Assembly: GCA_964016885.1 (NCBI GenBank)
Contig: CAXHJY010000577.1
Location: forward strand, 1-63,620
Direction of reading: 5' to 3'
From: Eledone cirrhosa
Lineage: Eukaryota
DNA length: 63,620 nucleotides
The position numbers were made by a program, and so were the translations under genes. Under the pieces are notes generated by a model. The model saw nothing but the letters and a program-made list of their open reading frames with translations. It made no database searches and was not told the origin of the DNA. Positions 16,069 to 63,510 of this stretch are shown in pieces; the first letter of the stretch is position 1; the number at the start of each line of letters is the position of its first letter.

Positions 16069-16272
16069 TAGGAAAAGGTATGACCTCGATGGCAGAGCTC
16101 AAGCCATTTCGACGGCTATTTCTGGACTGAAATAGTCCAGAAATAGCCGTCGAAATGGCTTGAGCTCTGCCGTCAGGGTCATACCTTTTCCTATTACCCA
16201 CTCTACTACCCTAAGTATTGAGTACTCTGGTGCGTTATGGTCCATCTGGTTCCTTACCACAATTCCTTCATT
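16069..16272 (+). mobile_element. (TA)n-embedded fold-back element, family C, containing the 3' half of a hammerhead
   Basis: 60-bp arms 16069-16128 and 16134-16193 with a 5-nt loop, then an unpaired 79-nt tail; motif GAAA-TGGC-ttgagctct-GCCG-TC. Confidence 0.75.
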
Positions 16273-16781
16273 ATATATATATATGTGTGTATGGCTCTGT
16301 GAGTGTGTATGGTTGTGTATGTATGTGTATCTGTATATCTGTTAGAATGTGTGTATGGCTGTGTATATATGTATGGATGGATGTATGTATGTATGAGTGA
16401 GTGCATGCGTGTATGAATCTGTGGGTGTGTATGTATGTGCATGTGTATTAGAGTGTATTAGTCACTGATAGATATTAGGGATCTCTGACAAACCAGTCGG
16501 TGGGATCAAGGGATCAGAAATGAAGGTACGGCCATTATCTCCGAAATTGCTCTTGGTGGAGAGGTGGGTGGGGGTTGGAGAGGGGTGGATAAGGAGGGTG
16601 AGGGGTGGGTGAGGGGTTAGTGAGAGGTGGGTGAGGAGGGTGAGAGCAGTTTAGGCCATTGATGTGTTTAGGATGAGAGCCTCTCTGTTGGTATCTGTGG
16701 ACATCAGTATACACATATATCTATATATATCTCTCTCTATATATATGTGTGTGTGTGTCTGTATAAATGCTATATATATAT

Positions 16782-18530
16782 AGAGAGAGAGAGAGAGAGA
16801 GAAAGAGAGAGAGAGAGAGAAAGAGAGAGAGAGAAAGAGAGAAAGAGAGAGGGGGGAGAGAGAGAGGAGAGAGGGGGAGAGAGAGAGGAGAGAGGGGGAG
16901 AGAGAGAGAGGAGAGAGGGAGGGGGAAAGGGAGAGAGGGAGAGAGAGAGAGGGAGAGAGAGAGAGGGAGAGGGAGAGGGAGAGGGAGAGGGAGGGAGAGG
17001 GAGAGGGAGAGGGAGAGAGGGAGAGGGAGAGAGGGAGAGGAGAGAGAGAGGGAGAGGAAGGGAGAGGAGAGGAGAGGAAGGGAGAGGAGAGGAGAGGGAG
17101 GGAGAGGAGAGGGAGAGAGAGGAGAGGGGGAGAGAGGAGAGGGAGAGAGAGGAGAGGGAGAGAGAGGAGAGGAGAGGGAGAGAGAGATGGAGAGAGAGAG
17201 AGAAAGAGATAGAGAGAAAGAGATCGAGAAAGAGAGATAGAGAGAGAGAAAAAAAGAGAGAAAGAGAGAAAGAGAGAGAGAGAGAGAGAGAGAGAGAGAG
17301 AGAGAGAAAGAGAGGGAAAGAGAGAGAGAGAGAGAGAGAGAGAGAGAGAAAGAGAGAGAGAAAGAGAGAGAGAGAGAGAGAGAGAAAGAGAGAGAGAGAG
17401 AGAGAGAGAGAGAGAGAGAGAAAGAGAGAGAGAGAGAGAGAGAGAGAGAAAGAGAGAGAGAGAGAGAGAGAGGTGGAGAAATGTAAGCATGTGTGTGTGT
17501 ATATATATATATATATAAGTTGAGAAATGTGTATGTATAAGCAGTGCACACACATAACACATATTACACAAACACACATCCACACATATATCACACACAT
17601 ACCATACACACGCACACATATCACACACATACCATACACACACACACATATATCACACACATACCATACACACACACACACATATATCACACACATACCA
17701 TACACACACACACACATATATCACACACATACCATACACACACACACATATACCACACACATTCATACACACACACTCATACCATACACATATACCACAT
17801 ATATACCATACACACATATACCACATACATACCACACACACATACCATACACACACACATATACCACATACATACCATACACACACACACACATATACCA
17901 CATACATACCATACACACACACACACATATACCACATACATACCACACACACATACCATACACACACACATATACCACATACATACCATACACACACACA
18001 CACATATACCACATACATACCATACACACACACATATACCATACACACACACACACACACACACACACACACACACACATACACACACACACACACATAT
18101 ACCACACACATACCATACACACACACATATACCATACACACACACATATACCATACACACACATACACACACACACACACACATATACCACATACATACA
18201 ATACACACACATACATACCATACACACACACATATACCATACACACACACACACACATACACACACACACACACACACACACACACACATGTACCACACA
18301 CATATTCATACACACAGAAAAGGGAGAAAAAAGTGTTTCAGGATTGTAGTCAGTTGTTAATCTGTCTTTAAACAGTTTATCCCGAATGTCTCTAAATGAT
18401 ATATCTACACATACATATACATACATACATATATATACATACATACATACATATACATACATACATATACATACATACATATACATACATACATATACAT
18501 ACATACATATACATACATACACACTGGTAT
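16782..18530. repeat. (GA)n/GGA-rich block followed by CA/CATA/CATACCA simple repeats
   Basis: Seen directly. Confidence 0.9.
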
Positions 18531-18561
18531 ATAACCAGGGCCATCTTAACAGCATTATATA

Positions 18562-18745
18562 TGGATTGGCAGTATCGGTAGAGGGTCGGACGCCATGCTT
18601 TCCAGCATAGTTACGTCCCTTTACGATCTGAGTTCAAATCCCGCCGAGGTTGACTTTGCCTTTCATCCTTACGGGGTCGATAAAATAAAGTACCAGTAAT
18701 GCACTGGATAATTGCTGGCCTTGTGCCTAAAGTAGAAACAATTAT
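18562..18745 (+). mobile_element. SINE-A
   Basis: A and B boxes and the 3' end match 14163. Confidence 0.85.
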
Positions 18746-18889
18746 ATATGGATATCGGCAATTTTACCCGCCCTAGATAGATATATACATATCTATATAT
18801 ATATGTATATATATCTCTATATATATATATGTATATATATCTATATATATGTATATATATATATATATATGTATATGTATATATATGTC

Positions 18890-19260
18890 TATCTATCTAG
18901 GGCGGGTAAAATTCCCGAGATCCATGGACGAGTTCTCTCCAGCGGTCTCTGTCCCTCATTATCGCTGCCATGTCCTGCGTCTCCAACAGACCAGTGTCTG
19001 TCCTTAGGGCATCAACATACGTTAACCTTGGTCTTCCTCTTCCAGTTTGTCCATGCAGGGGCTCCCACAGGAGCACTGAGTGCAATGTCAACTCTGGATG
19101 TCGGTGAGCATGTCCAGCCAACCCCAGTCTCCTCTGTGTCATTTTTGAGCTGACTTTTGGGATGCTCCCATACAGCTCTGAGTTTTTCATCCTCAGTGTA
19201 TACTGATTAATGTTCAGAGCCATCCTCAGCATTCTCGTGTAGCACCCATCCACCATCTGA
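18890..19260 (-). pseudogene. 5'-truncated RTE-type LINE 3' end (119 open codons) with a (TAGA)n tail
   Basis: ORF 18897-19256: DGCYTRMLRMALNI...[14 protein letters not shown]...[25 protein letters not shown]...[11 protein letters not shown]. Confidence 0.85.
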
Positions 19261-19300
19261 GTGTATGTATGTGTATATATATATATATATATATATATAT

Positions 19301-61892: not shown

Positions 61893-62463
61893 TTAGAGGT
61901 TTGTGGTTAATAATTGTTTCTACTTTATTTTATCGACCCCCGTAAAAGATGAAAGGAAAAGTTAACCTCGGCGGGATTTGAGGTTTGTGGTTAATAATTA
62001 TTTCTACTTTTGGCACAAGGCCAGCAATTATACCAGTGTATTACTGGTACTTTATTTTATCGACCCCGTAAAAGAAGGAAAGGAAAAGTTAACCTCGGCG
62101 GGATTTGAGGTTTGTGGTTAATAATTATTTCTACTTTTGGCACAAGGCCAGCAATTATACCAGTGTATTACTGGTACTTTATTTTATCGACCCCGTAAAA
62201 GATGAAAGGAAAAGTTAACCTCGGCGGGATTTGAGGTTTGTGGTTAATTGTTTCTTATATAGGCACAAGGCCAGCAATTTTGGTGGAGGGGAAAGTCGAT
62301 CAAATCGACCCCAGTGCGTGACTGGTACTTTATTTTATCGACCCCGTAAGGATGAAAGGCAAAGTTAACCTCGGCGGGATTTGAACTCAGATCATAAAGG
62401 ACCGTAACTCTATGCTGCAAAGCATCGTGTCCAGCCAGCTTCCGACACTGCCAATCCACCGCC
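61893..62463 (-). mobile_element. SINE-A preceded by three tandem copies (about 129 bp, the first shortened) of its 3' half plus flank
   Basis: GAGGTTTGTGGTTAAT...AAGTTAACCTCGGCGGGATTT is repeated. Confidence 0.8.
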
Positions 62464-62489
62464 CTAGAGTTTGAGGTTAATAATGCAAG

Positions 62490-62880
62490 CAAGGCTGTGG
62501 CTGTATGGTTTAGGAGTTCACTTTGGAAACAACATAGCTTCAGGTTTAACCCTTTAACATTTAAACAGGCTATATCTGGTCAGAATTCACTCACCTCTTC
62601 TGTTCAAACCAGCTGTAACTCGCCTCTCATATTTATGTTAAGGTATTGTTCTTAAAATAAATAATATCAAAATCTCACATTCGATATTATGTGAGGTAAA
62701 GCCTTTACCACAAAAATACAATAGTAAATATAGAGTAATGTAAATTCTGAAAGGTTAGTCCTATTGCATGGCTCCTCAGGCAAGTCCCATTCTATGATAC
62801 TATAGCTCCCAGGTTGACCAATGCCTTGAGTAAAATTTGGTAAACAGAGGTTGTAGAAGCCCATTGTGCGTGTGTGAGAC
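62490..62880 (+). mobile_element. Old tRNA/CORE-like SINE interrupted at its B box by a single-unit piggyBac-like MITE (62546-62758)
   Basis: GTGGCTGTATGG (A box)...CAGGT|TTAA-CCC MITE AAAGG-TTAG|TCC...GGCAAGTC. Confidence 0.6.
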
Positions 62881-62940
62881 CAGGGTGCAGTAGGGGCAAA
62901 TGCTCTGGGCCCCATCATCAAACTGCCTCCTCAACCGAAA

Positions 62941-63044
62941 TTATTGCAAGTGTCCGACGAACTTGCAGTTCCAGAATCAGACAAATCCACACAATGGTCG
63001 CATCTCGAGCTGTCCGCCAGCGAAACAATTGTAACACACAATAA
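62941..63044 (+). ncRNA. Type I hammerhead motif with a 61-nt stem II insert (family I, running to the TA tract at about 63152)
   Basis: TTATTG.caa.GTGT-CCGACGA-insert-GAAA-CAATTG-TA-ACAC.a.CAATAA; palindromic stem III and GUA triplet. Confidence 0.6.
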
Positions 63045-63163
63045 ATTGAGTCCAGATGCATCACTGATTTTTCATATTATATTCTATCACACTCTGCTCT
63101 GTAAGAACATAGAGTGCTCAACTGGCATACCTACCATCAGGCACATGTGTGTATATATATATA

Positions 63164-63510
63164 TATAAGATCAAGAGATGGTTAAAAGAGTTCCATGTAT
63201 GTTATTATGCGCATTACAAAAACAAATATCATCATGCGATGACATTTGCGTTTTCATCAGATAAAATAGGGAGACATGATATGAGTGTTTTTTAACCTTC
63301 ATATCATGTCTCCCTATTTTATCTGATGAAAACGCAAATGTCATCGCATGATGATATTTGTTTTTGAAATGCGCATAATAAAATACATGGAACTCTTTTA
63401 ACCATCTTTTGATCTTATATTATGTATACTCCAGTCCTACAAACTGTAGAGTGCTTCTTATCCGCTATCTGCATTGCTTTATTGTACTACAATAAAACTC
63501 ATCTCCTACA
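63164..63510 (+). mobile_element. Family A fold-back element, second copy
   Basis: Arms at about 63164-63284 and 63299-63420, 14-nt spacer, tail homologous to 21878-21963. Confidence 0.85.
63315..63385 (+). ncRNA. Type I hammerhead ribozyme
   Basis: TATTTTAT-CTGATGA-(11-bp CAAATGTCATC/GATGATATTTG stem, GCAT loop)-GAAA-TGCGCA-TA-ATAAAATA. Confidence 0.85.

Follow-up and report, generated by a model that had tools for sequence, protein, structure and literature searches.

The window, a 63,620-nt stretch of Eledone cirrhosa contig CAXHJY010000577.1, contains a series of insertions and partial insertions belonging to several sequence families. In the following list, I and T denote the two fixed sites, roughly 80 nt apart, at which the 3' ends of the arms lie.

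16071-16128, minus strand: family C inverted arm, with I as its outer end, joined to the (TA)n run at 16023-16070
16134-16271, plus strand: family C forward arm and 80-nt tail to T, separated from the inverted arm by a 5-nt spacer (16129-16133) within the insertion 16071-16271; the arm starts at the -58 Inr-like site
16200-16225, plus strand: family C hairpin 1, 8 nt 3' of I (motif scan)
19302-19424, plus strand: family C, second subfamily; inverted I arm (19302-19358) joined to the distal 60 nt of the tail (19365-19424), no overlap
21877-22297, minus strand: family A; tail 21877-21963 (87 nt by maximal pairing), T arm to 22130, I arm 22131-22297, spacer 0, hammerhead core in both arms
21933-21959, minus strand: family A hairpin 1
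28848-29202, minus strand: family B; tail 28848-28935 (88 nt), spacer 29058-29080 (23 nt), hammerhead core in both arms
28909-28930, minus strand: family B hairpin 1
33786-33956, plus strand: family D; inverted arm 33786-33823, forward arm and tail of about 80 nt to T, hairpin 1 at 33895-33915
41609-41835, minus strand: B-related solo T arm with hammerhead core and hairpin 1 (41670-41691), without an inverted partner
49245-49329, plus strand: family D relative; inverted distal tail (49245-49279) joined to I arm (49286-49329)
53538-53779, minus strand: family G; 84-nt tail (53538-53621), spacer of about 16 nt, hairpin 1 at 53587-53613
63168-63510, plus strand: family A; I arm 63168-63284, 14-nt spacer, forward arm with hammerhead core, T at 63510, tail of about 82-86 nt, hairpin 1 at 63428-63454

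All elements placed by the initial annotation were found in position, including the copies at 19301 and 49245, which it had described as inversion plus distal tail only. Its tail length was exact for family G and close for A, B, and C, while that of family D is about 80 nt rather than 75 nt; its spacers of 0, 5, 14, and 23 nt were recovered, with about 16 instead of 17 nt in family G. The outer end of the family D inverted arm is unseen, because another repeat adjoins it. The solo T arm, the hairpins beside both ends, and the assignment to a PLE clade were additions to that annotation.

On sequence grounds, families A-D are classified as 5'-truncated Penelope-like elements (PLEs) of the Hydra clade, in agreement with the PLE identity proposed earlier: the arms, or pseudo-LTRs (pLTRs), are contiguous with reverse transcriptase/endonuclease (RT/EN) open reading frames, and longer copies are predicted to encode a telomerase-like RT and a Hydra-type endonuclease. 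Intact frames of 738 aa (family B) and 786 aa (family C, stop-to-stop) were found; the A and D arms adjoin the same type of ORF, which is shared by family H. An ORF link for family G was looked for, and has not been found so far. The B and C proteins contain RWR, DKT, CNCx5C, CxxC, and CKH motifs and no CCHH. This set matches the definition of the Hydra clade (RWK-type motif, DKT, CxCx5C linker, no CCHH, and CxxC and CxH beside E and N; PMC8557442), and the clade assignment is made on motifs. A Neptune assignment was rejected for families A-D, since CCHH is absent. The AlphaFold model of the family B protein (pLDDT 91) had TERT as its best Foldseek match (3du5_A, E 1.4e-9), and the RT contains a YRDD motif. 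The putative C-terminal endonuclease has GIY-YIG-like motifs, in which Y618, Y631, G633, R642, H646, and N713 are invariant among 106 homologues, without confirmation from Pfam; Pfam and PDB sequence searches of the proteins gave no significant match. As in other EN+ PLEs, there were pLTRs formed by partial tandems, the unit measuring about 3.55 kb in C and 3993 nt in B, together with inverted 5'-truncated arms and one-sided tails.

The elements resemble the C-terminal EN+ PLEs of the Hydra clade (Craig et al. 2021, PMC8557442) in their protein motifs, short ORF, putative hammerhead, and targeting of (TA)n, and a cephalopod member, Hydra-1_Obim, is included in supplement S1 of that study. A pattern scan found canonical hammerhead cores in families A, B, D, and H and a deviant core in C, while no hammerhead was among the Rfam matches listed. 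In family D, a difference between the arms at hammerhead position 4 was inseparable from the selection of copies by query. Animal non-LTR retrozymes are likewise short, hammerhead-bearing sequences related to PLE pLTRs, but consist of head-to-tail tandem units (bioRxiv 10.64898/2026.07.22.740005), whereas the copies described here are head-to-head truncation products with mostly unique junctions. They were not classified as retrozymes, as their arms lie head to head.

When 99 dispersed 10-kb stretches (990 kb of unselected DNA) were scanned without regard to family, 133 of 849 inter-TA segments contained an inverted repeat. About 29 sequence clusters shared the arm-and-tail layout; their tails ranged from 25 to 200 nt and were most commonly 78-83 nt. 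Chance does not explain this recurrence: the lopsided inverted layout is real and genome-wide. Tails of the present elements measure about 65-90 nt, reaching about 170-180 nt at most in some families. A check for empty alleles covered contigs, none of which bridged the insertion.

The arm ends are equally regular. In family C, which was sampled both at random and by tail alone, the 3' end lay beside a TA run in 70 of 83 arms, with 35 at I, 33 at T, and 2 between, which bears out the earlier claim of a fixed, TA-rich outer end. Two-armed insertions in the unselected DNA combined one I end with one T end in 72 of the 73 classified cases (binomial p ~8e-21 against 50%); in 11 of these 72 pairs, the position of one end is approximate, and another 3 pairs could not be classified. 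In tail-selected sets, the inverted partner ended at I in 66 of 69 visible cases, while T-T insertions, which count against the rule, made up 3 of the 69 and were found once in family H. Also counting against it is a motif-less family outside the reference set, with 3 same-end copies versus 1 tailed copy. Family M (CCHH-type endonuclease, 60-nt tail) keeps the pairing of I with T in 8 of 9 copies without the hairpin motif described below, which counts against the role proposed for that motif. Apparent same-end pairs in N1 were rejected, having arisen artefactually from a TA run inside family M; apparent same-end pairs also occurred in N2 and Q.

Either the long, ORF-bearing arm or the short one can be the tail-less arm. 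T is internal and does not mark the end of the element. The initial annotation had taken T for the RNA 3' end, which does not hold at the sequence level, since full-length copies of families A, B, C, D, G, and H extend beyond it into the 5' UTR or ORF.

The turn points differ base by base, as had been claimed, but only down to a family-specific 5' limit. In family C this limit has its mode at -58 in both arms, and TATA-like boxes lie about 30 nt upstream of it in C and D. The TATA/Inr-like site where arm 5' ends pile up is likely the transcription start, although the limit in family A (-177 to -179) shows no clear Inr. Family B is young, with 100% identity over 228 nt in 40 scored copies, and its copies with fully identical arms have many different turn points. 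Inverted arms in TA could also be produced if MITEs or fold-back DNA transposons transposed as intact units; one C junction was repeated in 4 of 30 query-selected copies, copy L086 reads through such a junction, and some short copies may have been re-copied. Nevertheless, the ends are asymmetric, outer ends are not scattered, and turn points are not fixed. The RT/EN ORFs in full-length copies and the variable turn points of family B refute such elements as the general mechanism, and we consider this origin extremely unlikely.

Located 4-9 nt 3' of both I and T is a bulged hairpin, RCUC-N5-20-UN-GAGY-RCU, and tail length equals the spacing of the two hairpins. The second hairpin follows T in full-length copies of A, B, C, G, and K (for G, it is visible in the longer copy L029), but is degenerate in D and H, and the strict descriptor near I was passed by only 8 of 29 de novo family representatives. 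Whole-region minimum free energy folding recovered both hairpins in B and the second one in C, with alternative folds elsewhere. An Rfam scan of the window gave only hairpin/microsatellite matches below gathering scores, and a scan of five metagenome loci gave no matches.

The motif was also present in marine metagenome relatives at 31-38% identity. For 54 ORF starts preceded by 200 nt or more of sequence, on contigs that do not all represent independent hosts, two hairpins were found upstream in 33 cases, one in 14, three in 1, and none in 6, spaced 55-83 nt apart. Matches were strongly biased to the sense strand (134 versus 9 antisense; shuffles, 20/10800). Inner pair 1 was Watson-Crick in all 92 distinct motifs (60 C-G, 32 U-A), against a shuffle mean of 50 and none of 5000 shuffles, a covariation pattern that supports the hairpin stem at the sequence level. 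Of 58 metagenome ends examined, 9 matched TA-run ends, 3 of which were dropped as internal runs of the template; the 6 true (TA)n ends all precede a hairpin by 6-9 nt, hairpin 1 in 3 cases and hairpin 2 in the other 3.

Some of these features have precedents. Earlier work on PLEs had already described an inverted arm with a tail of 30-40 nt, as well as two sites of RT initiation (PMC8557442, PMC11167929). Like the present copies, Penelope elements with inverted pLTRs are head-to-head with a tail, optional in their case, on one side, and they have the pLTR promoter and the tandems for transcription that are proposed here, but their tail is 31-37 bp and, in the accounts concerned, is explained by self-priming or left open (PMC3846280, PMC2377424). 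The passages on the Hydra clade in PMC8557442 give a generic 30-40 bp tail, with neither the hairpin motif nor the pairing of one I with one T end, whereas the present tails match the hairpin spacing. A biochemical parallel is PAc (Poseidon, Anolis), for which both strands of AT-rich DNA were cut and extended in vitro, and RT began at two positions within the RNA, close to the ORF start, that delimit the tail; a dimer was predicted (Frangieh et al. 2024, PMC11167929). The present elements share the two internal sites bounding the tail, here the probable starts, and the AT-rich target. PAc belongs to a different clade, however, with a tail of 30-40 nt, and the account describes one AC-rich stem loop, with no duplicated motif 3' of each start and no rule on which arm uses which site. 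A duplicated bulged hairpin beside both PLE ends was not found in the literature passages searched.

Priming of both target strands at two defined sites, as suggested in the initial annotation, fits the pairing of I with T ends and the in vitro PAc data. Its comparison with twin priming carries over in part. In L1 twin priming, both target strands prime on the RNA, yielding a 5' inversion, with the poly(A) end and a variable internal site as starts and arms that do not overlap. Two-strand priming fits here too, but with overlapping arms and with two sites that are each fixed and internal. With T internal and I fixed, the L1 form of twin priming was set aside.

We consider it probable that Hydra-clade PLEs insert in (TA)n with head-to-head arms that end just before two tandem hairpins, which likely bind the RT and set the copying starts. 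RNA would be transcribed from the TATA/Inr-like promoter in the pLTR, with putative starts at -58 (C) and -193 (B), reading (hammerhead)-I-hairpin 1-T-hairpin 2-ORF. Two RT/EN protomers would then load on both hairpins of one RNA, and the endonuclease would nick both (TA)n strands, each 3'-OH annealing to 1-3 nt of UA-rich template next to one of the hairpins. As both RTs copied toward the 5' end, the one behind would displace the cDNA made by the one ahead, so that sequence upstream of I would be copied twice but the tail only once. Finally, the cDNA 3' ends would join head to head through microhomology or through short inserts copied from a template. An mRNA loaded at its 5' pair of hairpins would give rise to the abundant short dead copies, while ORF-bearing copies would need read-through into a downstream tandem pLTR.

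The use of a single RNA by both protomers may be questioned. If each protomer carried its own RNA and an asymmetric complex forced one start at I and the other at T, no strand displacement would be needed, and the one C insertion in 45 with arms of clearly different subfamilies would be accommodated. Arms of one C insertion mostly share subfamily letters, even rare ones (23 of 45 identical over 16 nt, versus 7 when shuffled), but two RNAs from one locus would share them too, and the concordance could also stem from conversion between arms. We give this variant a small but appreciable chance.

The closest form of the earlier model, which combined an RNA 3' end with an internal site, would have the hairpins act in RNA processing, so that RNA 3' ends are generated at I and T by a nuclease or a terminator, followed by ordinary 3'-end target-primed reverse transcription. 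The sharp ends at a short distance from the hairpins would be expected, yet the element continues past T, independent ends predict about 50% I-I plus T-T pairs where 1 of 73 was seen, and PAc starts internally regardless of the RNA 3' end (PMC11167929). This makes processing improbable. We are similarly doubtful that the motif acts on DNA, with a fold-back or self-primed intermediate resolved by endonuclease cuts at I and T. Self-priming on an antisense template (PMC3846280) and EN-mediated resolution (PMC8557442) have both been proposed, the D. virilis EN required the tail for DNA recognition (cited in PMC11167929), and the covariation equally fits RNA or single-stranded cDNA. However, non-overlapping copies such as those at 19302 and 49245 turn without any fold-back, inserts are present at many junctions, hairpin 2 is not part of the inserted DNA, and in vitro RT starts map to the tail ends (PMC11167929).

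The integration mechanism of PLEs, whose RT is telomerase's nearest relative, has long been debated as an open question. Returning to copying from one RNA, the duplicated hairpin may, across the clade, be a pair of template-positioning elements, through which a dimeric telomerase-like RT on one RNA primes simultaneously on the two nicked (TA)n strands and copies overlapping templates as far as the transcription start; we regard this broader proposal as about evenly balanced between true and false. If true, it would explain why there is a tail and an inverted arm, why tandem copies are needed, and why short palindromes that would be mistaken for MITEs are so numerous. A short conserved RNA element at both starts, together with young, intact B and C ORFs, makes the mechanism directly testable. 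The twin hairpins explain tail length and allow annotators to predict where elements end, and TA-flanked palindromes, a large class, are reclassified as PLE products. Crude scaling from the 990 kb gives about 250,000 C arms in this genome.

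Self-alignment of the window, which is the entire 63.6-kb contig from a repeat-rich genome of 3.0 Gb, recovered the fold-backs of the initial annotation: two head-to-head arms of Penelope-like element (PLE) pseudo-LTR (pLTR) between (TA)n runs. Its claim that one arm alone carries a tail of ~75–90 nt was borne out, as window tails measure 80–88 nt; the tail separates an internal arm end (I) from the tail end (T). By ungapped pairing, spacers are 5 nt in family C (16.1 kb), 0 in A (22.1 kb), 23 in B and about 16 in G; in the A copy near 63.3 kb the spacer is 14 nt. A pattern scan places hammerhead cores in arms of A, B and D. 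The window also holds numerous SINE-like repeats and the following features:

5454–5860: three tandem palindromes, with TA between them, related to family M (a CCHH-type PLE); the first two have the I end at both sides, the third is tailed
13024–13073 (13.0 kb): solo I arm
About 62960–63148, plus strand: a further family's solo arm, which has a short tail and carries a motif for hairpin 1 (63091–63117; described below), immediately upstream of the A copy
6488–8893, 23333–24069, 34404–35123, 38803–39426 and 50905–51998: tandem arrays within dispersed repeats, with units of 100, 61, 72 and 74 nt

Counted against references taken from real copies, the 3' ends of family C arms are bimodal, with 35 at I, 33 at T and only 2 between (13 do not adjoin a TA run), in line with the fixed outer end noted initially. 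Among 76 head-to-head pairs from eight families, 72 combine one I with one T end (in 11 of these, one end is resolved only approximately), one is I+I and three are unclassifiable. Four sets, each made of 30 loci chosen by their tail, contain 69 visible inverted partners, of which 66 end at I and 3 at T; the other 51 loci show no inverted partner inside the locus. I and T ends are roughly equally frequent for the ORF-bearing arm of family H (endonuclease-selected loci), and family M, which has a 60-nt tail and a CCHH-type endonuclease, also obeys the rule. Counter to it, T-T copies occur, and one motif-less family has three same-end copies versus one tailed copy. In a family-blind scan of 99 dispersed 10-kb stretches of the genome, 133 of the 849 segments lying between TA runs contained an inverted repeat; 29 clusters have one arm at a TA run and a tail of 25–200 nt, most commonly 78–83 nt. 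At three family A loci (L004, L010 and L024), the I junction bears short reiterated TA-rich additions, resembling slippage or repeat addition on a TATAT template.

In full-length copies, the pLTR and tail continue beyond T into the 5' UTR or ORF. By sequence, T is thus neither the end of the element nor the RNA 3' end at which one of the two primings was initially proposed. A bulged hairpin, RCUC-inner stem-UN-GAGY-RCU, begins 4–9 nt 3' of I (hairpin 1). In A, B, C, G and K, T is likewise followed, 6–8 nt on, by the start of a second copy (hairpin 2); in D and H this copy is degenerate. The window holds eight element-associated matches, and insertion junctions have 1–3 nt of TA common to element and target. 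Because just 8 of the 29 de novo family representatives carry the strict motif close to I (106 of 20,000 random positions), it looks clade-specific, and the two-end rule wider. Families with tails of about 170–180 nt (L105:3848–4857, L097:1815–5030 and L137:7573–7900) have a far longer inner loop in hairpin 1.

A metagenome scan yielded 78 related loci at 32–38% identity. Upstream sequence of 200 nt or more was available for 54 ORF starts, of which 33 are preceded by two hairpins, 14 by one, one by three and six by none, with a hairpin spacing of 55–83 nt. Matches are sense in 134 cases versus antisense in 9, with 2 inside ORFs; shuffled controls gave 20/10,800. The inner stem covaries: with inner letters left free, Watson-Crick pairs occur among 92 distinct motifs in 92 at pair 1 (60 C-G, 32 U-A), 64 at pair 2 and 50 at pair 3, against means of 50, 26 and 22 for shuffles, which leave kinship among motifs in place. 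Nine of 58 TA-run ends matched the twin-hairpin template; three are internal runs, and the remaining six lie 6–9 nt ahead of hairpin 1 or 2. By hand arithmetic on supplement S1/S2 of PMC8557442, 20 of 23 Hydra consensus ends fall 5–22 or 60–128 nt beyond the listed hammerhead block, which agrees, though weakly, with ends at I and T.

RT and endonuclease frames were reached from long A and C copies; near-full-length frames encode 738 aa (B) and 786 aa (C), and D runs on into the same ORF type. The B and C proteins contain RWR, DKT, CxCx5C and CxxC/CxH and lack CCHH, the combination given for the Hydra clade in section 11 of PMC8557442, so that these and like families would be assigned to that clade by motif. 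A structure model of the family B protein (pLDDT 91) best matched TERT. Family C is the most abundant, with intact ORFs; nonetheless, at L353, L358 and L251, its hammerhead core departs from canonical and the putative start falls within stem II.

Inverted pLTRs with 30–40-bp tails have been published (accessible text of PMC8557442, PMC3846280 and PMC2377424), as have two RT starts bounding the tail for PAc, a Poseidon-clade PLE of Anolis (PMC11167929, likewise). The duplicated hairpin and the one-I-one-T rule, which turned up neither in Rfam scans of the window and five metagenome loci nor in full-text searches of openly readable papers, seem to be what is new; the accessible portions of PMC4209133, PMC13282606 and PMC12910113 hold nothing further on tails. 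Judged from the arm ends, both target strands very probably prime, as in vitro data in the accessible text of PMC11167929 support for PAc, and the hairpins are probably RT-binding sites.

Turn points are not fixed within a family, as had been noted: young B copies with identical arms show many different junctions, and tail-selected C junctions differ from one another. Transposition as MITE units is therefore rejected. The 5' ends of arms do have an upper limit. In family C (sets including tail-selected and EN-selected loci), the mode is –58 in both arms (10/70 I, 12/114 T) and ends are nearly absent from –66 to –113; in family B the mode is –193. By the generally known TATA and Inr consensuses, the C and D limits fall on an Inr-like site that has a TATA-like box ~30 nt upstream, while family A has no clear Inr at its limit. 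Since Penelope transcription begins in the pLTR (accessible text of PMC3846280 and PMC2377424), run-off at the RNA 5' end, the start site, is a slightly favored reading of the limit. The two arms of one C insertion have identical subfamily letters in 23 of 45 pairs versus 7 of 45 shuffled pairs, with one clearly discordant. One RNA, two protomers and strand displacement, the step to which the lack of RNase H is tied, might together account for the insertions, a joint scheme for which we hold the chances even.

A family C locus, L086, reads through a junction identical to that of the window copy (16129–16135), which is common to 4 of the 30 copies selected by query. Some of the short hairpin copies may now and then be copied again. 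In family D (L293–L322 and window 33826–33840), the T arm often has C at hammerhead position 4 where its partner, the I arm, keeps U (7 of 8 query-selected pairs); among unselected arms, C occurs in 1 of 8 T arms and 0 of 14 I arms. This change is either an RT error hot spot or a selection artefact.
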